52,437 nt of DNA from assembly GCA_028719205.1 (NCBI GenBank), contig JAQUKH010000001.1:144603-197039 (forward strand), given 5' to 3'. The notes under the pieces were generated by a model. That model worked only from the letters and a program-made list of their open reading frames with translations, made no database searches and had not been told where the DNA came from. A program made the translations under genes and the position numbers. Positions 8,786 through 43,646 of the stretch are shown here, one piece after another. Position 1 is the stretch's first letter. Each line of letters begins with the position of its first letter. Source of the stretch: a bacterium. GTDB lineage: Bacteria; JACRDZ01; JAQUKH01.

Positions 8786-9714
8786 TTAATTATCAGGCTC
8801 ATATCCAGCGCTTTGGCTGAGTGTGTAATCGCCCCGATGGAAATATAATCCACTCCTGTCCGCGCGATTTGTTTTACATTATTCAAATTAATATTTCCCG
8901 AAGCCTCAAGTTTTATCTTCTCAGGAACGATTCCGCGGGCTTTTTTCATATCAGATATTTTCATATTATCGAGCATAATAATATCCGGCGAATAATGAAT
9001 TGCCTCTATAAGTTCTTTAATATTTTGCACTTCAATTTCCACTAATTTATTTTTTACGGCCTTTTTTTTCAGGAGCTCAAATATTTTTGTTATTCCATTA
9101 TTTATTTTTATATGATTTTCTTTGATCAGTATCATATCATCCAGGCCAAAACGATGATTAAAACAGCCGCCGGCCTTTACAGAGTATTTTTCTAAAAATC
9201 TATACAGGGGCATTGTTTTGCGCGTATCCAGTATTTTAACAGAATGCGGTTTTATCATTTTATTAAATTTATTTGATAATGTTGCTATCCCTGAAAAATG
9301 CTGAAGAAAATTCAATGCCACTCTTTCCCCTTTAAGAATAGAATCAGCCGGGCCTGATATAACAGCGATAACATCTCCATTTTTTACTTCATCCCCGTCT
9401 TTTTTATTAAAAGATATTTTAATATTTTTATTTATCAATAAATATATATCCCTGACAATGAACAAACATGAAAGGACTCCGGTTTCTTTGGCCCTGATCT
9501 CCGCGCGAACGGTCTTATTTTTTGGAATTAGATAAAAGGATGTTATATCCGTACCGTTAATATCTTCTTTTAAAGCAGATTTGAGCATTTGCGGATAACT
9601 TATCGGAAAATATCCTTTAAATTTTTTACTATTTAGAATTTTACTATTAAATATCTCAGGCAGGGAAACAGCATTATTTTCGGCAAAACAATGTGTGGTT
9701 CTTCTAGAGAACAT
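8782..9714 (-). CDS. nadC: Nicotinate-nucleotide pyrophosphorylase (quinolinate phosphoribosyltransferase)
   Basis: ER.ALNFLQ.FSGIAT, DTRKT, NHRFGLDDMILIKENH, IMLDN, EASG; true start codon uncertain. Confidence 0.95.
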   Translation of the reverse strand: MFSRRTTHCFAENNAVSLPEIFNSKILNSKKFKGYFPISYPQMLKSALKEDINGTDITSFYLIPKNKTVRAEIRAKETGVLSCLFIVRDIYLLINKNIKISFNKKDGDEVKNGDVIAVISGPADSILKGERVALNFLQHFSGIATLSNKFNKMIKPHSVKILDTRKTMPLYRFLEKYSVKAGGCFNHRFGLDDMILIKENHIKINNGITKIFELLKKKAVKNKLVEIEVQNIKELIEAIHYSPDIIMLDNMKISDMKKARGIVPEKIKLEASGNINLNNVKQIARTGVDYISIGAITHSAKALDMSLIIK

Positions 9715-9985
9715 AATTTTTACGTTTGGCTATATCTTCTCTTGTTTTCATGTACATAGCCTTATATTCAGAACTACCTTCAGGTATATTGCGGGAATAA
9801 GAACTCATTATCTTTTTTGTTTCAGCTTCGATTTCATCTTCAATTGACAAGTCATTAATGATTATTTTCTTAACAAACTCTATTAATTCATCCTCATCCA
9901 GATCCGAATAAATGAGATCATCATCCAATATCCTGCCTACTATCTTATAACTTAGATCAACTATCCTGTCTTCACTTAAACGCAC
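9704..9985 (-). CDS. DUF507-like small protein
   Basis: MRLSED N-terminus, E..IE.E..K acidic helix, short C-terminal K..YVL; tandem with a paralogue. Confidence 0.65.
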   Translation of the reverse strand: MRLSEDRIVDLSYKIVGRILDDDLIYSDLDEDELIEFVKKIIINDLSIEDEIEAETKKIMSSYSRNIPEGSSEYKAMYMKTREDIAKRKNYVL

Positions 9986-10002: not shown

Positions 10003-10284
10003 TTATATAACAAAACCTTTCTGTTTCACTAGCCTGTCTTTAACCTTTTTCAGAAGGCTATAATGGTCTATTGATCCATCCTTAATCTCTTTCTGATGTT
10101 GTTCTATTATCATTTTTGCTTCCTTGTCAATATCATCTTCCTGTTTCATATTCTCTAATATAACGCCGGATATCTTAGTTTGTAAAACATCTAAAGTAGC
10201 ATTTAATGTAATTCCCTTATAACCTTGCATTTTTAAGGCAATCTCTTTTCCCATATTTACAATTTTGTCTTCATTAATACGCAT
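10003..10284 (-). CDS. DUF507-like small protein
   Basis: MRINED.., EDDIDKEAK, KVKDRLVKQKGFVI; start moved to ATG 10284, which follows a GAGG SD. Confidence 0.65.
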   Translation of the reverse strand: MRINEDKIVNMGKEIALKMQGYKGITLNATLDVLQTKISGVILENMKQEDDIDKEAKMIIEQHQKEIKDGSIDHYSLLKKVKDRLVKQKGFVI

Positions 10285-10324
10285 TTTTAACCTCATCTAT
10301 TAATTTAAAAAAGTAATTTTACCT

Positions 10325-13437: not shown

Positions 13438-14655
13438 ATGAGATATATTTTATTACATACAATCTTGTTTACATTTCTGATAAACGCCGCTTTTTCATCA
13501 GATCTTTCCGTTATTCAAACAAACAAAATTTCTCAAATTCAGCTTGCTTTAGCTGATAACAAATTAGATTTAAGATCTTTTAAAATTAATTTAGCCGGCA
13601 GGATCTTAAATCAGCCTATTATCCTGACCCCTGAAAATCTTGGAGAATGGGGAAAGATCTATTTTGAGGTTATTCCGCCTGATAACTATTCTTCAACGTT
13701 AAGTATTGACATATCCATAGATGCGGTTACATTCCGGAAAACCTCAAAAAATTCATTCTATTTTGAATTTGAGCCTGAAGATAATAAAACATATATAATT
13801 ACTATGCGTGTTTTAACAAATGATAACGCGGAAATAAGAACATTCAGGGAATATCCGATAACTTTTATAAGATTCCCTGAAAAACATTATTCTCAGCTCA
13901 TAAAGAATATTATTACAATAGCATTTAACAATAAAGATCCTTCTGCTTTTTTAAAACATCTTTCAAACACGTATACTGACCCTGAAAATAACCGTTATGA
14001 TGAAATAGAAGACAAATTAAACCTGGAATTTAAAAAATATAGTAATATTAAATTCACAATAAAAAATTTTGAAATCAGCAGATTGGATTCGGTAAAATTC
14101 AAGGTAACGTTTGAATGGACCAAATCATATGAAAAAAATGATGGAAATAATATTGAAAATATATTTGGAAAATCAATTTTTATTTTTGAAAATGACCTTA
14201 TAATTCAAACAAGCGGTGACTCAATATTTATGGATTCATCTGTAAATAAGCAATTATCTGCGAATTCCGGGGTGCTTAAAGGCGGAACCGTTAATCTGAC
14301 GCCGAATGAATCTTTTGAATTTTTAACAGAAACATTTTATAAAAATGACAGGTTTAAAGGCGATATAGCAGTAAAAAAAGACGGTAATTTTTTATCATTA
14401 TACGTTCCCGGAGGCGTGATACAGGATATGGGAATAACAGCATTATCGGAAATCAAAGAGGCACCTGAGACTGGATATTCAGAAGAAACACAGGTGATCA
14501 TTGGGCACAGCTATTGTCTCCGGAATAATAACAATAGATTCGCAAAACTTCAAATTACTTATGTTGAAGGCTCCGAAATCGGACAAACCTCCGTTCTTGT
14601 CAGTATAAATTGGATCTATCAGGAAAAAGAATGCAGGATATTAAGGCCTCAATAA
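13438..14655 (+). CDS. Secreted hypothetical protein with a central NTF2/SnoaL-like domain
   Basis: Signal peptide (..INAAFS); IAFNNKD..AFLKHLS..Y pattern typical of NTF2-like folds; TTGACA-N17-TAATCT promoter at 13399-13427. Confidence 0.55.
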   Translation: MRYILLHTILFTFLINAAFSSDLSVIQTNKISQIQLALADNKLDLRSFKINLAGRILNQPIILTPENLGEWGKIYFEVIPPDNYSSTLSIDISIDAVTFRKTSKNSFYFEFEPEDNKTYIITMRVLTNDNAEIRTFREYPITFIRFPEKHYSQLIKNIITIAFNNKDPSAFLKHLSNTYTDPENNRYDEIEDKLNLEFKKYSNIKFTIKNFEISRLDSVKFKVTFEWTKSYEKNDGNNIENIFGKSIFIFENDLIIQTSGDSIFMDSSVNKQLSANSGVLKGGTVNLTPNESFEFLTETFYKNDRFKGDIAVKKDGNFLSLYVPGGVIQDMGITALSEIKEAPETGYSEETQVIIGHSYCLRNNNNRFAKLQITYVEGSEIGQTSVLVSINWIYQEKECRILRPQ

Positions 14656-17612
14656 CTTTTTCCGAAACTGTTTCCTAAAATATACAGATCACTTCCGTCT
14701 ATTATTTTATCTTTATTCAGGTCAGCTTTCGGATTCCAGGTGCTTTCTCCCTGCGTTTTACCGAATGAAGATCCAAAAATAGAAAGATCCTCGCCATCTA
14801 TGATATGATTTAAATTAAGGTCTGATATTTCTATTGAATTCAAAAAGTAAATATTATCCCATTCAACAATTATACTGAAATCGCGTTTTGAATCTCCGTC
14901 CTGCCAATCAATCGCGTAATCTTTTATACCTGCCATATCTATTTTTTTATCTTCTTTTTTATCATAAAGAATTACGCGAAAATTAAGCGGCGGATTAATA
15001 ACATCCCAGGATAAGGTTGTTTTATCTTTAACATTAGTTTCAATTACAAAATCAAAGTTTGTAATCTCTAAAGCGCCAAAATTCCCGCATGCACGGTAAT
15101 CAGTTCTATATCTTCCATTATCCTTCCCCCAATCTGAATGAGGAAAATATAACGATACATAGCTTTCTACCGGAGGCGGTTCAGACAGATCATTGAAATC
15201 ATATCCGTTTTTCGCGCCGGGTAGAAATCCAAGATAATTTTCATTATCAATATAATTCTTTGACATTACTTTTAGTTTTAATCCCCACCCGTCATTTTTT
15301 ACTTTACGGGAAGGTGAATTTACAGTCATTAAACCGGTGGCATTAGCGTCATATTTTGGGAAAACAATAGTTATATCTTTATCACTTCTATTTTTAACCC
15401 AAAATCCAATATCCGGTGAAATAGTGGTAAGATCCAAATATGATCTTTTAGCGTTGGTAGTATCATAATCATATGTCAAAAACTGATTTTCAAGCCAGAT
15501 ATTAGATGTATCAGTGACATATATCTCAACAGTATCTTGTTTAACCTTGATCTTTGAACTTGCAATTTGGTAAGCGAATGGATCAGCAATTTGCGTCCAA
15601 CCGGGAGATAAAGAAATTGCAGAAACTTTATCAGGGTCAACAGAAGCACCGTTTACTTTAAGCGGTAACGTATCAGGTATATTATCTCCCTTAATTTTGA
15701 GCCAGAAAGCATCACCCGGATCAAAAGTTGTATCATAGTTATTAGAATATTCTTTTTTTGCGGTATTCCACCGGTAAACTCTTCTATCTTCCGATAAGCT
15801 TAACGCGTAATCAATATTTGAGCTGTCAAGGACCAATGGGAAGGAAACCATTTTCCATGTCCACGTAGGAAAAGGAACGGTATAACCGGCAACTTTAACG
15901 CTCAAATTTCCCACAACTTCTTTTTTATTATCCGCCCAATCAGTCGCAATGATCTTGTAAGAAATTCCCCTGGGGGTAATATATTCTTTTGGAATTTTTA
16001 TTGATTTTGTTAATTTCAGTATAGATAAACCTCCTTCCGTATATATTGGAACAAAGGCATTCTCACCTTCCCCGTTTTTCTTAACAAAAAATTCGCCTTT
16101 TGTTAAAGCGATATTGTCAGAGACAGTAACAGTTACATAAGAATCTTCACCGTTATTTAGTAAACCAAATAGATCAGTTCCTTCAATTTTAGGAACGGTA
16201 GTATCAAGGTTTAAATTAAGTGAAGTTACCGTTATAATTTTTGAATCTGATACTTTTGAGCCGTTATTATCTGTTACCCGGACTTTTGGATGATATGTAC
16301 CTGAGGAACCATAAATATATATAGCGGTATTTACATTATTATTTGTAAGATCGTATGTTCCGTTCCCGTCAAAATCCCATTCGTATAATGTAATTGAACC
16401 GTCATAATCAACTGCATTTGCGGTAAAGTTAATAGTTAATGGGAATCCCCCCGTGTCATGATTTGACGTTATATTTACTGCAGGTGGAAAATTTCTTTGA
16501 GTATATTTTGTGTTTGATTTGGGAAATGGATAATTATAAAAAACTACGCCACAAGTTCCAAAACTATCAGAAGAATCATAAATGCAGTTATTGATTATAC
16601 TATTATCAATAGTGCTCCACCAATTGTAATAAACAACATTTAAATCATTAGGCGAATTATTAACAAAATAATCGTTATTAACCGCACCTGTATCAAAAAT
16701 AAAGTTATTATATAAAGCATATATATTTGCGGAACTGCCTGTATTATAAATCCCTAATCCATCATTTGCGGAATTATAAGCAAGAGAACAACTGTCAAGA
16801 AAAAGTGTGCCATTATCGTTATATGCCGCACCACCATAATTAGCTTTATTATAATATAAGTTGCTTTCAAGAATATTAACCTGACTGTTATCTGATAATA
16901 ATATCCCGCCTCCGTTTTCAGTCATCAAGCCACAATTTCTTATTTCGCTGCTTGAAATAATAATTACCGAAGAAGGCGCGGCTTTAATTCCGTGTTTCGC
17001 ATTTTCCAAAATTGAGTTACTTAAAAACCCGATTGAAGAAGTATCAAATAAAATCCCTTCCCAATCTCCCGTTTCTAAAGAAGTAAATCTTATAAAATTA
17101 TTGCTTTCACCGATGGCATATAGCGCACCCTTTACATTAAAATGCGCGCTCGAACTAAATTTCAGCTCTGAGCCTGCTCCAATTACTAAAACAGCGCCTG
17201 TATCTATTACAACATCCGAAGTAATAAAATATTCGCCGGGGATTAAATTAGCATAACCGGAAATTGTTCCTGATAAATTATTTATGGTCTGTTGTAAAGC
17301 AAATATTTCTGTTGTGTCTGCGCCAACATAATTTGTTCCACTATATACTTGTACTTTCGGATAATAAATTCCTACTGTATTATAAGTATAAACCGCCGTA
17401 CTTTCCGTATTGCTTGTTTCATAAGCCCCATCTCCATCCAGATCCCATTCATAAATGTAAATCGCTGGGGCAGTAACTTCAACTCTAAAGTTTACTTGTA
17501 ATGGGGCAACTCCGCTATTTTTGTCATACAACAAACTCACATCCACTGCGGATAATGGGGCTTGCAATAAGCTTAATATTGCTATGATTAATAAAATATT
17601 TATTTTTTTCAT
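14649..17612 (-). CDS. Large secreted multidomain protein: PKD, beta-helix, PKD, Ig-like, C-terminal dockerin-like domain
   Basis: Signal peptide from ATG 17612 (MKKINILL); PKD motifs YEWDLDGDG and YEWDFDGNG; GG.I/GG.A beta-helix repeats; duplicated Ca-loop tail DLNLNHIIDGEDL...DLNKDKIIDGSDL. Confidence 0.75.
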   Translation of the reverse strand: MKKINILLIIAILSLLQAPLSAVDVSLLYDKNSGVAPLQVNFRVEVTAPAIYIYEWDLDGDGAYETSNTESTAVYTYNTVGIYYPKVQVYSGTNYVGADTTEIFALQQTINNLSGTISGYANLIPGEYFITSDVVIDTGAVLVIGAGSELKFSSSAHFNVKGALYAIGESNNFIRFTSLETGDWEGILFDTSSIGFLSNSILENAKHGIKAAPSSVIIISSSEIRNCGLMTENGGGILLSDNSQVNILESNLYYNKANYGGAAYNDNGTLFLDSCSLAYNSANDGLGIYNTGSSANIYALYNNFIFDTGAVNNDYFVNNSPNDLNVVYYNWWSTIDNSIINNCIYDSSDSFGTCGVVFYNYPFPKSNTKYTQRNFPPAVNITSNHDTGGFPLTINFTANAVDYDGSITLYEWDFDGNGTYDLTNNNVNTAIYIYGSSGTYHPKVRVTDNNGSKVSDSKIITVTSLNLNLDTTVPKIEGTDLFGLLNNGEDSYVTVTVSDNIALTKGEFFVKKNGEGENAFVPIYTEGGLSILKLTKSIKIPKEYITPRGISYKIIATDWADNKKEVVGNLSVKVAGYTVPFPTWTWKMVSFPLVLDSSNIDYALSLSEDRRVYRWNTAKKEYSNNYDTTFDPGDAFWLKIKGDNIPDTLPLKVNGASVDPDKVSAISLSPGWTQIADPFAYQIASSKIKVKQDTVEIYVTDTSNIWLENQFLTYDYDTTNAKRSYLDLTTISPDIGFWVKNRSDKDITIVFPKYDANATGLMTVNSPSRKVKNDGWGLKLKVMSKNYIDNENYLGFLPGAKNGYDFNDLSEPPPVESYVSLYFPHSDWGKDNGRYRTDYRACGNFGALEITNFDFVIETNVKDKTTLSWDVINPPLNFRVILYDKKEDKKIDMAGIKDYAIDWQDGDSKRDFSIIVEWDNIYFLNSIEISDLNLNHIIDGEDLSIFGSSFGKTQGESTWNPKADLNKDKIIDGSDLYILGNSFGKSY

Positions 17613-17613
17613 T

Positions 17614-19152
17614 CTATCTGGCCTTTTTATTAGCTTTATCCGGCGGCCCCGGCGGCAAATCATTTACTTTAAATTCCCTGAAATATCTCATCGATTTATT
17701 ACCTAACATATCTTCCAATTCTACAGAAACTTTCCAATTCCCATCAGCCTTTCTGCCAAGAAATTTATATGGTGTTACCGTTATTGCGTATTTTTTCAAA
17801 CTATAATCATATTGCATAACTAATTGGAAGGAGCTCCCATTCTGGTGAAATAAAGTCAAATTTATATATTTTTTCATTTCTGAAAATTCATCGTCAGCTT
17901 CAACAGATATTTCAACTGATTCTTCTATATTAACCGGGTTTGGCGTAATATTAAAACTCGTTAAATTTGGAGGGCGCGTATCCAGATAAACCACCCTGGT
18001 TTCTCTGCTTTCATTTCCCGCTCCGTCAACAGCGCGAAATTCCAGGATATTTTTACCTTCATTAAGCATATAATTAGTATTAATAATACCTGCAATTAAA
18101 TGAATTTCCTGCCCATTAATAAAAAATTTGAGTCCTTCCTTCGCAACGTCATATTTATAAATAGTCTGAATACTTTTTTCACCATCTTTATTAACAGAGG
18201 TAAAACTAAAATTTATATTCCCCCCCGTTGCCCTGTCAGTTACTAAACCGACTATTCTTAAATTTCTGTTATTTGTAGCCCTCTTTCCAAATTCAGAAGT
18301 TGTGACCTTAATTATTGGAGGAGAAGTATCTTCACCTGTATTTATTGTGAAATTAAAATTACCATTTTCATCTGATTTTGTTGTAAGCGATTGTCCTGTA
18401 GAAGAGACCATATTAATCGTATTCCCGGGATCTGCCTGGCCTTTTATACTTGCCACACCTTTATCATTTTCAACAGATAATATTTTTGGAGAATTAATCT
18501 CCCCTTTTTTAATTAATTCTTCCTTTGCCTTTTCCAGATTTTCAAAACGTTCGAAATCAGAACCTGAAAGGACCCCGCTCCCGATAAAAGCTCCATCTAT
18601 ACCGACCAGAAAATATTTATTTTCTTCAATTACCTGTTCCCCTCCCGTTTTTATCGAACGCACATAACCTAAACCGCTCTTCAGCCCGATCCATGTCTCT
18701 CCATTTGGCTCAACGTGGATAAATACCGTTGTTCCCCGGAAACCAACCAGCGCTACGGGCGTTTCTATCTCAAAAGTATCTCCCTTTTTTAATTTCTCAA
18801 TTTTTCCGACCAGATCTCCGGCAAATAATTTAAAAGAAAATTTCTTTGTATTTGATTTATTATCCGTAAACAATTTTTGTATATCAAAAGTTGTATTTTC
18901 ACCAATATTAAAGATACTGTCATCAGGAAGCCTTAATTCAACCTTAGTTTTAAGCCTTGTCCTGATGCGGTCTTTCGGATAAAGCATCATTTTAAGCTTA
19001 ACATCTTCCCATTCTTGCTTTTGAGCTCTTTTTGCCTCAGCTTTACCTTCATAATAAATAAGCTGAGCTTCTTCTTTGGTTTCTTTTGCCGCAAATGAAT
19101 ATACCATTGGCATTATCATCAAAACTAAAATAACAAATTTAATATTTCTCAT
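17614..19152 (-). CDS. FecR-domain protein with C-terminal Ig-like domains
   Basis: Signal peptide; D.IRT..VEL..PDDS.F.IGENT and FEIETPVALVGFRGT FecR motifs; DT.PP and A.D.AGN Ig-like motifs. Confidence 0.8.
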   Translation of the reverse strand: MRNIKFVILVLMIMPMVYSFAAKETKEEAQLIYYEGKAEAKRAQKQEWEDVKLKMMLYPKDRIRTRLKTKVELRLPDDSIFNIGENTTFDIQKLFTDNKSNTKKFSFKLFAGDLVGKIEKLKKGDTFEIETPVALVGFRGTTVFIHVEPNGETWIGLKSGLGYVRSIKTGGEQVIEENKYFLVGIDGAFIGSGVLSGSDFERFENLEKAKEELIKKGEINSPKILSVENDKGVASIKGQADPGNTINMVSSTGQSLTTKSDENGNFNFTINTGEDTSPPIIKVTTSEFGKRATNNRNLRIVGLVTDRATGGNINFSFTSVNKDGEKSIQTIYKYDVAKEGLKFFINGQEIHLIAGIINTNYMLNEGKNILEFRAVDGAGNESRETRVVYLDTRPPNLTSFNITPNPVNIEESVEISVEADDEFSEMKKYINLTLFHQNGSSFQLVMQYDYSLKKYAITVTPYKFLGRKADGNWKVSVELEDMLGNKSMRYFREFKVNDLPPGPPDKANKKAR

Positions 19153-39608: not shown

Positions 39609-40190
39609 TTATTTTTTTACAACCGGGGCCGGTTTTTGATCCTTTACCTCAACAGGGAATATTGGTTGTGTAAGTTCTATTTTTTCTTTAATCTTCGGGA
39701 TTTCTGCTTTAGCCAGCGCGATCCATTTACTTCTTTGGGTAAGAGAATAATCCTTTGGGACATGGACATTTTCAATATTATTTGTCTTTATACTTCTAAC
39801 CTGATCTTCAGTCAAGGGAATATATGAATCTGCTATCATTTCTTTAGGATTATGCCTGGCAGGTTCAGCCTCGCGTATTCCATCAGGATAAATTGGATCG
39901 CCCAGTATCATCCCGGCTTCCAAGTCACTTGCGGGAAATTTTTTCACGGTATAAGAGGTAAGTATCTGCTCTACTGTTTCCTGAGCCCATAAAGCCTGTT
40001 TATAATAATCAAAAGCCTTTGGAATATCTCCTTTATTTTCCCATTCAACACCCATAGCGTAATATTCCCTGCCTTCATTATATGCCTCTTTCGCGCGCGC
40101 AAGGACCTCAAATACTGTCATGGCAATAGTAATAAGATAAACAACAAAAATTATCAATAACGCTTTAAATATTTTTTTAGGTGTTAACAT
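39609..40190 (-). CDS. Membrane-anchored hypothetical protein (TPR-like helices with an inserted domain)
   Basis: N-terminal TM; YYAMG..AFDYYKQAL; internal LEAGMILGDPIY..LTEDQV..I..VHV segment. Confidence 0.6.
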   Translation of the reverse strand: MLTPKKIFKALLIIFVVYLITIAMTVFEVLARAKEAYNEGREYYAMGVEWENKGDIPKAFDYYKQALWAQETVEQILTSYTVKKFPASDLEAGMILGDPIYPDGIREAEPARHNPKEMIADSYIPLTEDQVRSIKTNNIENVHVPKDYSLTQRSKWIALAKAEIPKIKEKIELTQPIFPVEVKDQKPAPVVKK

Positions 40191-40873
40191 TAATCTCTCC
40201 TATTCCTTAAAATTAATAATCTTATTAATTGCATTGCGGCCATAGCAGTTGCCGCGACATAAGTGAGAGCGGCCGCGTTCAAAACTTTACGGCTTCCTTC
40301 CAATTCTTCGTCAGATAAAAATTTATTTCCCTGTAAATTTGCCAATGCCAAACGGCTTGCGTTAAATTCAACCGGCAGCGTAATTATATGAAACAACACA
40401 GCTAAACTAAAAAGCAATATTCCAATATCCATCAATATTCCCGCTGATCTAAAGAAGAAACCGATAAAAAACAGAGGAATAGCCAGTTGAGAGCCTATAT
40501 TTGCCGCCGGGACAATTGATGAACGGATTTGCATCGGGAAATAACCGTTTCTGTCCTGAATCGCATGCCCGACTTCATGAGCCGCAATTCCAAGCGCGGA
40601 TAAAGAATTGCTGTTATAAACCTCATATGAAAGCTTTAATTTTTTGCTTCGCGGGTCATAATGATCTGTTAAAACTCCGGGCTGCACTTCAACACTGACA
40701 GATAAGCCGTTGTTGACAATCATCTGTTTAGCGGCATCCGCTCCTGACATACCACGCGACGACTTTATTTTTGCGTATTTTTCATATGTTGATTTCACTT
40801 TAAATTGCGCGTAAAAAGCAAAAGCAAGCGCAGGCAGCAAAAATATCATTGATGGATCAAAAAATGGAAACAT
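40190..40873 (-). CDS. Neutral zinc metallopeptidase (YugP / Zn_peptidase_2 family)
   Basis: LTDHYDP, AAHEVGHAIQ (HExxH), TLPVEFNAS.RA, AAALTYVA; AAGGAG SD. Confidence 0.92.
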   Translation of the reverse strand: MFPFFDPSMIFLLPALAFAFYAQFKVKSTYEKYAKIKSSRGMSGADAAKQMIVNNGLSVSVEVQPGVLTDHYDPRSKKLKLSYEVYNSNSLSALGIAAHEVGHAIQDRNGYFPMQIRSSIVPAANIGSQLAIPLFFIGFFFRSAGILMDIGILLFSLAVLFHIITLPVEFNASRLALANLQGNKFLSDEELEGSRKVLNAAALTYVAATAMAAMQLIRLLILRNRRD

Positions 40874-40943: not shown

Positions 40944-43037
40944 TTATTTTCCAAAATTCATCGCAAGTAAAGCCAGGTCATTCCCGTCAATTATCAGATC
41001 TTCATTTAAATCCGCGTAAAGATTCCAATTGGAATTTTGAGGATTAGATCCGAAAGCTTTTGCCATATCATATAAATCATGGCCGTCAACACGGTCGGCC
41101 GAACCCGAAGAAACCGTATCAATATTACCCATAGGCTTGCTCAAATATTTAAGCCCGATAGCCATAACCGCTTCAGCAATTGCTCCATCACTATAAGTGA
41201 CCTTGACCTTGACATTATATGTACCTATTATATTATAGGTGAAGTTTAGGGTCTTAACGGTTGTTGTTGTCTCATATTTATCATCCCCATTAAAATCCCA
41301 TTCGTATTTAATAATATCGCCGTCTAAAGCTGTTGTATCAGCGGTAAAATTCACTAACCAGGGTGAATGGGATAAAATTTCGGCTGTAAGTTTTACTACC
41401 GGCTGTTGAACAAGTGAAATTTTCGCGGTCATGATATCGCCATAATTCGAAACACCGGTAATCGCGATCCTGGTATGAGTATTATTTTTTAATCTGGAAC
41501 CGGGGATTGTATCATTAGTAAAATCCGAATTATTTCCTGAAAAGAAAAACATATTCTTATCGAGAGGAGTTTGTTCGGTATCCAACTGACTGAAGCCTAA
41601 AATACCTTCATCGGCCTCTTCAACATCCACACCTTTATCGTTCACATCAGCATTAACATCGTTAAAGTTGAAGTTCGAAGACGTAAGTTTTGAATTATCA
41701 ATATGATAAATAACCACTCCTCCGTGGCCTGATGCCTCTTCAAAACGCTGGAAGCCCATGTCATATCCTGAAAACTGCCGGTTTTCCAAAAGAAAATATT
41801 GATCCGGATCTGATGTGTTAACCCGGAAAACAGATGAACCATCACTGTCAGTCTTTGGAAGCGTAATATCCTGTCCGGAATCTATTGTTGTTACTTTCCC
41901 CCATGAAAGATATTCTTTACTCCATGCTGATAATTGTGTAGGCATAGACCCGTGAAATTCTCCTGTTTTTGATGCCCAGCTGCCATTTCCCATTAAATCA
42001 AAAAATCCTACGCCATAAGAATCCCCGTTTCCAGGATTGGTATCGTATAAATCCGGCAGTGAAAAAATTAAATGTCCGAGTTCATGCGCCATTATTCCGA
42101 TAGTAGCAAGGTGATCTCCGTGCCTTTCGCCTATTTCACAATAGTCCTCTATCGTTATCGTACTATCAACTATCGGATAACCTACCGAAAACATAGACCA
42201 TCGATGGCCCCAGATTGATGGTGCAGCAGGACCCGCGGAACGTTCATATCCCGCGACAATAATTATAATTGAAAGCTCATCAGTAGAAATAGTACTATCC
42301 TTATTGTAATCGTACGATGCATAGTTAATATATGGATCTGCTAGTGTAATCGCGTCTTTGGCAATCTGTTGATTCGTAGAATCAGAAATAACATCAGTAG
42401 AATCACCTGTATTTGGATGTTTGTAAGGCAAATGCAGCCACCCAATTATACCGTCATCTGTTACCCCGGAGGTTTCAGACGCAGGACTAATGGATACCGC
42501 GGAATATGACACTTTTTGATAATAGTCCGAAACACTGCTGGTTTCTCCAAAAAATAAAGGTTGAATATCCAACGGGTCATATGTTCCGGCAGTATCTAAA
42601 AAATCAACACAGATAACTAATAGCTTTCTGTCTCCCGCAACCGGATTACTTTCGGTTAAACTATTTCTCGAACCAAAATCGATATTACCATTTCTATATT
42701 TAATTGATTCTTTCTTAACAGACTGGTATGAATTCAAACCTTTGGGTATATTAAATTTAGAAGGCTCTACTTCCCCGACAACCAGCCTTGAAACATTATC
42801 GGACTGATAATATTCCCAATTGCCGTTAGCCGCGTTTTTGTAAATTCCATAACCTTCTTTTGTTGTGATCCAATTATACCTTTCATCACCATGAAGCCTT
42901 GCTTTAAAAGTTTTCCCGGAAGGTTGCTTTAATATAATAAGGTTATTATCAGCCGGCCCGGCATTTGCTTTTAAGGATAAACCTAATAATAGAAATATCG
43001 ACAAAAACAAAATTTGCCTGTTCATCATTATTTTCAT
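40944..43037 (-). CDS. M6-family (immune inhibitor A-like) metalloprotease with PKD and C-terminal dockerin-like domain
   Basis: Signal peptide; QPSG..GDE propeptide; IWGHRW, HELGH..SLPDLY, LMGNGSW, W.K..L.W, YFLLENR; PKD YEWDFNGD; tail RVDGHDL...ADLNEDLIIDGNDL...FGK. Confidence 0.88.
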   Translation of the reverse strand: MKIMMNRQILFLSIFLLLGLSLKANAGPADNNLIILKQPSGKTFKARLHGDERYNWITTKEGYGIYKNAANGNWEYYQSDNVSRLVVGEVEPSKFNIPKGLNSYQSVKKESIKYRNGNIDFGSRNSLTESNPVAGDRKLLVICVDFLDTAGTYDPLDIQPLFFGETSSVSDYYQKVSYSAVSISPASETSGVTDDGIIGWLHLPYKHPNTGDSTDVISDSTNQQIAKDAITLADPYINYASYDYNKDSTISTDELSIIIIVAGYERSAGPAAPSIWGHRWSMFSVGYPIVDSTITIEDYCEIGERHGDHLATIGIMAHELGHLIFSLPDLYDTNPGNGDSYGVGFFDLMGNGSWASKTGEFHGSMPTQLSAWSKEYLSWGKVTTIDSGQDITLPKTDSDGSSVFRVNTSDPDQYFLLENRQFSGYDMGFQRFEEASGHGGVVIYHIDNSKLTSSNFNFNDVNADVNDKGVDVEEADEGILGFSQLDTEQTPLDKNMFFFSGNNSDFTNDTIPGSRLKNNTHTRIAITGVSNYGDIMTAKISLVQQPVVKLTAEILSHSPWLVNFTADTTALDGDIIKYEWDFNGDDKYETTTTVKTLNFTYNIIGTYNVKVKVTYSDGAIAEAVMAIGLKYLSKPMGNIDTVSSGSADRVDGHDLYDMAKAFGSNPQNSNWNLYADLNEDLIIDGNDLALLAMNFGK

Positions 43038-43038
43038 C

Positions 43039-43608
43039 CTATTGATAATTTAAACTCCCGCCGATCCATGATGTGCCGGCGATATTGGGATTATGCGCGT
43101 TTGATGATTTCAAAGCGCTATTCTGGACATTAAATCCTATAGCAGTATTCGCCTGCGTTGTTAGCGCCCTAAAAACAATAGTAACTAACGTTCCATCTCC
43201 ATTTGCGCCCGGAACATCTCCTTTTTTATCACTACCGACCAGTAAGGTACCTTCCTTTCCCCTATCCAGCATAGCGGAAAATACAATATCTCCTTCCGTA
43301 CCTAAATAATCTCCTTTTCTTAATGATATATAGTTTATTTTACTGCTATCGTATGTTATTTCAATCGCGGCACCATATACATCCGTCCCGTTTTTTACCT
43401 TAACAGCTAAATTTATCTCATCATTATTTATTGAAACTTGTTCTAAATATACTGTATTATCTGAAGGGGTGCCTGAAGGAGTGAAAGAAATTGTATCACC
43501 TGTACCGGTAAGCGGCATTGATGACCCGCCACCGCTTTTGCCACAACTGTTCAAAATAAATAGGACTGAAATACTTATTATACTTATTAAAAACTTAAAT
43601 CTTCTCAT
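43039..43608 (-). CDS. Cohesin-domain lipoprotein
   Basis: Lipobox LNSC plus G/S linker; cohesin pattern V.VKN..DVYG....ITYD...I......GDYL...G.L..G......G.GTL.TI.F.A; stop codon 1 nt before the protease ATG. Confidence 0.75.
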   Translation of the reverse strand: MRRFKFLISIISISVLFILNSCGKSGGGSSMPLTGTGDTISFTPSGTPSDNTVYLEQVSINNDEINLAVKVKNGTDVYGAAIEITYDSSKINYISLRKGDYLGTEGDIVFSAMLDRGKEGTLLVGSDKKGDVPGANGDGTLVTIVFRALTTQANTAIGFNVQNSALKSSNAHNPNIAGTSWIGGSLNYQ

Positions 43609-43616
43609 ATTTATAT

Positions 43617-43646
43617 ATTATACCGTAATATTGGATAAAAAATCAA
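43617..43646 (-). promoter_or_regulatory. Candidate sigma70 promoter of the cohesin-protease pair, near-leaderless
   Basis: TTGATT-N18-TATAAT, 8 nt before ATG 43608. Confidence 0.5.

Follow-up and report, generated by a model that had tools for sequence, protein, structure and literature searches.

The genes at 43039-43608 and 40944-43037, on the minus strand of a 52,437 nt stretch of bacterial contig JAQUKH010000001.1 (positions 144,603 to 197,039; assembly GCA_028719205.1), hereafter the window, encode a single-cohesin lipoprotein and a secreted M6-type metalloprotease ending in a divergent dockerin. We propose that the pair forms a tethering cassette in which one anchor holds one cargo protein, and that it is one of several alike in this genome; the probability of this reading is put at roughly 65%. 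Both proteins would be exported by Sec, with the 189 amino acid (aa) protein being lipidated at Cys22 and a flexible linker of Gly and Ser holding out its single cohesin. The protease would fold outside the cytoplasm, and its C-terminal dockerin would plug into the cohesin, mainly through dockerin helix 1, holding the enzyme on the envelope at a 1:1 ratio that the near-overlapping, and perhaps translationally coupled, reading frames may help to set. At least six cassettes of like design would each combine their own cohesin lipoprotein with a different cargo; hence this appears to be a general device, whereby each cargo brings its own anchor, rather than one specific to proteolysis. The initial annotation, made from the sequence alone, had viewed the two genes, correctly placed at these coordinates, as a minimal protein-degrading analogue of a cellulosome. 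Overall it is partly supported, being right about the parts and their likely contact, too narrow on function and unproven on location.

The cohesin gene (43039-43608) encodes one of eight closely related paralogues in the genome. The N terminus of its product reads MRRFKFLISIISISVLFILNSC, with Cys22, and continues as GKSGGGSS; the putative signal peptide (43543-43608) ends …VLFILNSC, and the L-N-S-C lipobox places the candidate lipidated residue, Cys22, at 43543-43545. Asparagine at the -2 position is unusual relative to the lipobox consensus; the cysteine itself is invariant in 18 of 18 aligned homologues and in all 24 of a wider set. A linker rich in Gly, Ser and Thr (residues 23-39, GKSGGGSSMPLTGTGDT; 43492-43542) has predicted local distance difference test (pLDDT) values below 50 for residues 21-34, and is followed by a cohesin beta-sandwich domain occupying residues 40-189 (43042-43491). 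Residues 62-167 of the protein score 41.6 bits with Pfam Cohesin (PF00963), for which the gathering score is 24.1, and an AlphaFold2 model built from 18 homologues has pLDDT values of approximately 95-98 over residues 40-189. Comparison of this model with the PDB using Foldseek returned 70 chains at E <= 0.001, the best being 5k39_A (E = 5.9e-7); all of the matches listed are cohesins, whether of type I, of type II, the non-cellulosomal protein 2xdh from Archaeoglobus, or from Clostridium perfringens. By both hidden Markov model match and modelled fold, a predicted nine-stranded jelly-roll beta-sandwich, the protein is a true cohesin, and its earlier description as an LNSC lipoprotein with a Gly/Ser linker and one cohesin was confirmed.

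The protease gene (40944-43037) encodes 697 aa, beginning with a putative Sec-type signal peptide that lacks a lipobox (approximately residues 1-26, …LSLKANA/GP; 42960-43037). The M6 domain lies at residues 141-429 (41751-42617), where NCBIfam model TIGR03296 gives 174.4 bits, well over its threshold of 110.8, and contains the zinc motif HELGH at residues 318-322 (42072-42086); this HExxH sequence is followed by LPDLYD, which we take to resemble the M6 motif. The initial annotation of a secreted M6 protease is therefore borne out by TIGR03296 and HELGH, whilst the Pfam M6 model proposed for checking it, PF05547, gave no match at E <= 0.1, and InhA-like_VEG scored 17.3 bits, under its cut-off of 27.6. 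Residues 544-621 (41175-41408) form a PKD domain, with PKD_4 and PKD at 34.7 and 31 bits, both above their cut-offs; matches to PKD domains, including those of collagenases, were the only ones obtained when solved structures were searched with the protease sequence, which found no M6 structure at E <= 0.01. The two reading frames are nearly contiguous, with the TAG stop codon of the cohesin gene followed by a single base and then the protease ATG, just as first described. An AGGA sequence is found 8 nt ahead of the ATG at codon 4; given this spacing, translation may instead start at Met4 or Met5, and the intergenic gap would then be around 10 nt.

The dockerin tail (residues 633-697; 40947-41141) is the very C terminus of the M6 protease, and no type IX secretion tail was seen. 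It scores 122 bits against a profile of the genome's own tails, and the second of its two calcium loops (40977-41012), D-L-N-E-D-L-I-I-D-G-N-D at residues 676-687, is canonical, with D676, N678, D680, D684 and D687 fitting the expected pattern of Asp or Asn at loop positions 1, 3, 5, 9 and 12. Paralogous tails at 47-64% identity reach 24.8 and 25.5 bits with Pfam Dockerin_1 (PF00404; cut-off 22.9), and a more distant paralogue reaches 31.6 bits, which supports dockerin homology for the protease tail despite its own score falling below this threshold. On the strength of its sequence, the tail is a divergent dockerin. Modelled in isolation, it is predicted to form two helices, with a mean pLDDT of 75.

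A complex was predicted from cohesin residues 36-189 and the 70 aa tail, both supplied as alignments, together with two calcium ions. The interaction prediction score from aligned errors (ipSAE) was 0.89, 0.89 and 0.85, as opposed to 0.00 in all three controls; neither partner had a pLDDT below 88, and the runs agreed on at least 98% of contacts. In calibration of the tool, 116 of 157 solved complexes attained the mark applied, as did two of 215 mismatched pairs, figures that are a rough guide here given the use of our own alignments and ions. The tail contributes helix 1 (tail residues 22-37), an inserted loop (16-19) and the last helix to the modelled interface, and the cohesin contributes residues 78-83, 108-117, 123-131 and 162-175. 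Hence the docking of the protease tail on the neighbouring cohesin, put forward in the initial annotation, is what the model predicts; such binding would presumably depend on calcium.

The arrangement recurs across the source assembly (2.59 Mb in 68 contigs, 92.7% complete, with around 2376 genes at the level of open reading frames, ORFs). Twelve Pfam cohesin matches exceed the cut-off, in 12 separate ORFs, and phmmer searches with the window cohesin identified 13 cohesin ORFs, each with one cohesin match. Eight of these, including that in the window, constitute a close family (family A; 47-74% identity), all with the lipobox cysteine, which is also found in three of the five others. The tail profile, which is specific to this family and may miss other dockerin types, detected 12 ORFs: four at 47-59 bits and eight above 100 bits, the latter including the five tails from which the profile was built; there are thus eight close-family cohesins and eight close-family tails. 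In ten of the 12 ORFs the profile was matched to its last position, at or within two residues of the C terminus. The earlier suggestion of a census of such genes thereby yielded 13 cohesin and 12 dockerin-tailed genes, which directly adjoin one another on the same strand in six pairs, with gaps of -11 to +18 nt, the cohesin gene coming first in two and the cargo gene first in four. Only around 0.13 such pairs would be expected by chance (Poisson P of about 6e-9, a rough estimate). In addition, 50 nt beyond a cohesin lipoprotein gene on contig C46 there begins a DUF5122 repeat gene truncated by the contig end (C46:14606-15576, L069), and contig C10 opens with a tail-bearing DUF5122/cadherin-like gene (C10:1-1512, L057) that has a repeat motif in common with the end of C46. 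These are probably one gene broken at the repeat, and hence a seventh cassette.

The 12 dockerin-tailed proteins, between 127 and 1176 aa in length, are diverse. Besides the M6 protease of the window, identified with TIGR03296, Pfam searches distinguished an S8 subtilase with a prodomain, PKD domain and LVIVD repeats (1176 aa), an LVIVD/PKD protein (1139 aa), a PKD protein (1004 aa), an RCC1-repeat propeller (947 aa), an fn3 protein (924 aa, contig C32), a VWA protein (884 aa), a DUF6242-type propeller (647 aa) and the DUF5122/cadherin-like protein at the start of C10; a 382 aa protein has a DUF6242 match below the cut-off only, and two others (344 and 127 aa) have no family at E <= 0.001. Two of the 12 are therefore proteases. 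None has a glycoside hydrolase Pfam family at the cut-off, the sole row below it being GH85_C in the C32 protein (25.2 bits against 27). Ten have an N terminus resembling a signal peptide without a lipobox, as does the C46 DUF5122 ORF; the exceptions are the C10 ORF, cut at the contig start, and the 127 aa protein on contig C3, which is ambiguous. Similarly, as had been noted initially, no glycoside hydrolase is recognisable in the window: Pfam families of this kind were absent at the cut-off from 48 of its 50 ORFs, the remaining two being cut by the window ends and left out of the scan.

A protein-degrading counterpart of the cellulosome was rejected, since the 13 cohesin ORFs each carry a single cohesin, with no multi-cohesin scaffold in the genome, and the cargoes, among them RCC1, VWA, propeller and cadherin-like proteins, are mostly not enzymes.

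The window contains a second gene for a dockerin-tailed protein (14649-17663, minus strand), which is 1004 aa long, has one PKD domain and scores 50 bits with the tail profile. It has no adjoining cohesin gene; the gene upstream (17614-19152) encodes FecR and Ig-like domains.

Six genomes of the phylum were available in the collection, including the source genome; G001 and G002 are congeneric. Dockerin tails were found in five of the six, and cassettes in four of the five others (four in G002, two in G001 and one each in G003 and G004), with several further tail-bearing genes having no cohesin in the stretch retrieved, some of them at contig ends. One cassette was also detected in G022, which belongs to another phylum. 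Over 16 pairs, distances between cohesins correlated with those between tails (Mantel r = 0.85, p = 5e-5), indicating that cohesin and tail have been inherited and duplicated as a unit. This correlation arises from deep splits between cassette types, and pair-specific co-divergence was not detected among the eight closest pairs (Mantel r = 0.21, p = 0.19).

Conservation of the gene pair, raised in the initial annotation as a test of its proposal, thus holds for the type of cassette and not for this particular combination: the window cohesin and M6 pair had no counterpart in the five other phylum genomes when searched with this M6 query, and for the M6 cargo itself nothing close was found in the congeneric G001 and G002. 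The nearest M6 relative, in G003 (L139:532-2637, contig C23), is 40% identical over residues 3-550; its C-terminal region is of another kind, with a hydrophobic stretch at the end instead of the PKD domain and dockerin, and no cohesin ORF was present in the 4.1 kb examined. The tail and cohesin therefore seem to behave as an exchangeable anchoring module. A search for related loci with the cohesin alignment gave only two loci among genome contigs (one G002 contig), and none among metagenome contigs.

Amongst 1.84 billion cluster representatives, the cohesin profile matched 3172 at E <= 0.001, of which 496 also passed E <= 1e-10 and 34 passed E <= 1e-30. Full-length lipoproteins (180-200 aa), whose sources are diverse in composition, are numerous among these matches, and some of the proteins contain multiple cohesins. 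In a sample of 301 genomes, Pfam cohesin was found in 54 and the small-lipoprotein profile in 31. Some of the highest-ranking matches of this second profile, the metagenome proteins P0015, P0020 and P0036, have 5-12 cohesin stretches, and the C-terminal stretch of P0015 and P0020 presumably resembles a type IX secretion sorting domain.

The genome encodes Omp85/BamA (195 bits), LpxC (342 bits) and three secretins, from which it follows that the cell is diderm, as the initial annotation had supposed. On which face of which membrane the tether lies is the point that separates the proposed cassette function from its main rival, periplasmic tethering, in which the same contact would form at the inner or the outer membrane but on its periplasmic side, keeping the protease and the other cargoes within the periplasm. 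Only Sec-type signals are present on the two proteins, the cell has an outer membrane, no recognisable surface-export motif follows Cys22, and lipoproteins handled by the Lol pathway are mostly oriented towards the periplasm. Set against this is the nature of the cargoes, since their PKD, LVIVD, RCC1 and DUF5122 propeller, VWA, cadherin-like and fn3 domains, and a subtilase with a prodomain, are of kinds that are typically extracellular or found on surfaces. The cargoes also extend to 1176 aa in this genome and to 2779 aa in G002, and the three secretins could export folded proteins. We therefore regard a periplasmic location as unlikely, and the kind of cargo domains suggests that the tether is exposed at the outer face of the outer membrane.

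One of these secretins carries a cohesin itself. In the 653 aa protein encoded at L137:11690-13651 (contig C10), an STN domain is followed by Secretin_N, Secretin and Cohesin domains, in that order. A T2SSE ATPase, PilM, PilN, PilO and pseudopilins are encoded in the same cluster, and the next gene after that of the secretin (L137:13677-14234) specifies a 185 aa cohesin protein lacking a lipobox. ORFs of 630-796 aa that contain a cohesin were also found in G001, G002, G004, G026, G049 and G169, and a literature search returned nothing relevant on a secretin combined with a cohesin domain. From its domain content, this secretin is a possible link between the dockerin tails and export. The tail might then be a sorting signal, read by the secretin cohesin and its small neighbour before the cargo is handed over to the lipoprotein, or the lipoprotein might itself be an export partner. 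The placement of the secretin and the 185 aa protein within a cluster resembling those for pili or type II secretion, the recurrence of the large cohesin ORFs, and the position of ten of 12 tails at or within two residues of the C terminus, like many sorting signals, are all consistent with such a role. However, the secretin cohesins are only around 31-33% identical to those of the lipoproteins, and their location at the secretin C terminus would suit secretin assembly better than the choice of cargo, as this end is situated at the rim on the periplasmic side, where a pilotin usually binds. Hence export hand-over seems distinctly improbable as the primary function, in comparison with retention of the cargo by its own lipoprotein.

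A more speculative extension of the cassette model is that the paralogous cohesin and dockerin pairs are private, having diverged at the contact such that they are mutually specific and do not cross-react, and that the cohesin-bearing secretin reads the tails as an export signal; we consider this combination rather doubtful. Across the eight paralogues, the positions predicted to contact the tail have a mean pairwise identity of 0.39, as opposed to 0.56 in the rest of the domain, and an identity as low was found in 0.33% of random position sets; solvent exposure is not controlled for in this comparison, and in any protein the residues at the surface are the more variable, hence it was not used as evidence of specificity. 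On the dockerin side, positions 26, 30, 32 and 33 of the 70-residue tail are variable among paralogues, on an otherwise conserved helix 1.

The variability of these contact positions could also be accommodated by a code for adhesion between cells or to a matrix, in which the cohesins bind dockerin-tailed adhesins of neighbouring cells, leading to aggregation or kin recognition. Adjacent cohesin and dockerin genes have been described in syntrophic sulfate-reducing bacteria, where they are highly expressed in consortia and treated as consortium adhesins (Murali et al. 2023, PMC10553843), and a similar code has been proposed for the cohesin and dockerin genes of syntrophic sulfate reducers and anaerobic methanotrophic (ANME) archaea. 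Many of the present cargoes are likewise adhesin-like, having VWA, cadherin-like, fn3 or propeller domains. Yet the adjacency and near-overlap of the genes point to assembly within the producing cell, two of the cargoes are proteases rather than adhesins, and the contact-position test is subject to the lack of an exposure control already described. Adhesion of this sort is thus judged very unlikely to be what the cassettes are for, relative to the tethering of each cargo on the cell that makes it.

Several observations weigh against the tethering cassette. The protease tail itself scores only 17.4 bits with Dockerin_1 when searched alone, and 14.6-16.8 bits in longer pieces; its first calcium loop (41076-41126) is non-canonical, with an insertion of around five residues (consensus SPGS) where positions 3-5 would be expected. 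Hence, of the PKD domain and duplicated calcium-loop tail originally described, the PKD domain and second loop are clear, but the first loop is interrupted. This loop retains positions 9 and 12 (D656 and D659), and is canonical in the alignment of the distant relatives L025 and L028. The isolated tail model had no significant Foldseek match, although the top five rows were all dockerin chains (E = 0.59-2.9), and VIA-align over 48,161 chains found none significant (Z <= 2.6). As cohesin-dockerin complexes are solved, textbook structures, the favourable complex prediction may reflect likeness to these rather than binding by this particular copy. Furthermore, Sec signals alone would leave the cohesin lipoprotein and its cargo in the periplasm.

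The genomic pattern also has its exceptions. Five of the 12 dockerin-tailed genes and six of the 13 cohesin genes have no adjoining partner; one of the six unpaired cohesin genes lies 38 nt from a contig end, and the closest paralogue of the window cohesin, at 74% identity (C24:15517-16635, L062), is a 372 aa lipoprotein with two PKD domains ahead of its cohesin and no adjoining dockerin gene. Beyond the phylum, just one of around 20 regions surveyed contained a tight pair (one of 11 around small cohesin ORFs, that in G022, and none of nine around full-length relatives); in G026 and G195 the dockerin gene is 2.7 and 4.8 kb from the cohesin and on the opposite strand. As to putative co-transcription of the window pair, the candidate promoter of the initial annotation is present, as a sigma-70-like match, TTGATT-18-TATAAT (43617-43646, minus strand), that fits ten of 12 hexamer positions within the 53 nt gap between murB and the cohesin gene; it is weak, and the 29 promoter-type matches in the region, against 19.8 +/- 4.7 in shuffled sequences, make it poor evidence for a promoter. 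No terminator-like site was found after the protease gene.

Taken to their extreme, the low Pfam dockerin score and lack of a significant structural match for the isolated tail would allow the two genes to have no functional link at all, the tail being a generic calcium-binding end resembling an EF-hand, and the adjacency incidental. That there are six adjoining pairs where around 0.13 would be expected, that the arrangement is shared with four related genomes and another phylum, that divergence of cohesins and tails is correlated, and that the complex model scores far above its controls, together make an incidental association highly improbable, and anchoring of the cargo by the adjacent cohesin is accordingly preferred.

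With regard to the surrounding genes, a membrane Zn_peptidase_2 protein (PF04298, 285.6 bits) is encoded at 40190-40873 on the minus strand, 70 nt after the protease gene and with no terminator-like site between them; beyond it are genes for a TPR-like protein and then a 596 aa HEAT-repeat protein. Elsewhere in the window, two small adjoining ORFs on the minus strand, 9704-9985 and 10003-10296, match positions 95-180 and 1-92 of the DUF507 profile respectively, and represent either a split DUF507 gene or a two-gene form of that family.

The interest of these cassettes lies in their copy number, the diversity of their cargoes and the possible mutual specificity of the pairs. Cohesins and dockerins occur in many non-cellulolytic microbes; here, the presumed partner of each dockerin is encoded alongside it, six or seven times over. 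Since a small, putatively cognate lipoprotein sits beside the dockerin whilst the cargoes are unrelated, function is directly testable using short recombinant pieces. Were the eight close pairs mutually specific, they would provide a ready-made set of small orthogonal protein connectors, and were both the private pairing and the role of the secretin real, these natural connectors would be accompanied by a new sorting route in diderm bacteria. The system would, moreover, reveal a means by which proteases and adhesin-like proteins are retained at the envelope of an uncultured diderm lineage in the absence of type IX or sortase-type sorting tails.

Single-cohesin anchors in clostridial cellulosomes, cohesins and dockerins outside cellulosomes, and adjacent genes for the two in diderm sulfate reducers are all already known. 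Literature searches, in the text of the sources that was accessible, returned no account of lipoprotein-cohesin cassettes recurring in combination with different cargoes, the nearest being PMC10553843; the accessible text of PMC11557425 contains no mention of 'lipoprotein' or 'Gram-negative'. The sulfate reducers of PMC10553843 are, like the present organism, diderm and non-cellulolytic, with adjacent genes, and an S8 protease and adhesin-type domains are listed; lipoprotein anchors, one-to-one cassettes and copy number, which characterise the system here, are not mentioned in the portion of that text available.

As for the cargo of the window, its M6 domain is above the NCBIfam cut-off for TIGR03296, as in immune inhibitor A-type (InhA) proteases, whereas the PKD and dockerin end is not part of InhA, and PF05547 is without a match. 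The fold of the window cohesin matches those of the non-cellulosomal cohesins 2xdh, from Archaeoglobus fulgidus, and 2jh2, from C. perfringens. In the latter species, toxins and glycosidases form cohesin-dockerin complexes (2jh2 and 2ozn). Cohesin and dockerin modules also serve outside cellulose degradation, including on proteases. Non-cellulosomal cohesins and dockerins were reportedly surveyed by Peer and colleagues in FEMS Microbiol Lett in 2009. To our knowledge, reports of non-cellulosomal systems concern scattered modules or complexes between enzymes, rather than a repeated cassette of lipoprotein anchor and cargo in a diderm.

A further parallel in terms of arrangement is with OlpA, OlpC and SdbA of Clostridium thermocellum, in which one cell-bound cohesin likewise holds one dockerin protein, with a dockerin of type I or II, at the envelope. 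The cellulosome anchors 3ul4, 4dh2 and 2bm3, which are among the Foldseek matches, share the fold of the window cohesin, and in contacts of the C. thermocellum type the dockerin helices pack on one face of the cohesin sandwich, as they do in the contact predicted here. OlpA, OlpC and SdbA are attached to a monoderm cell wall through SLH domains. The C. thermocellum anchors cater for glycoside hydrolases or scaffoldins, and their genes are not paired one by one with those of the cargoes, whereas in the present genome, where no glycoside hydrolase was found among the 12 cargoes, the anchor would be a lipid on a diderm cell, and each cargo has a neighbouring anchor gene of its own.

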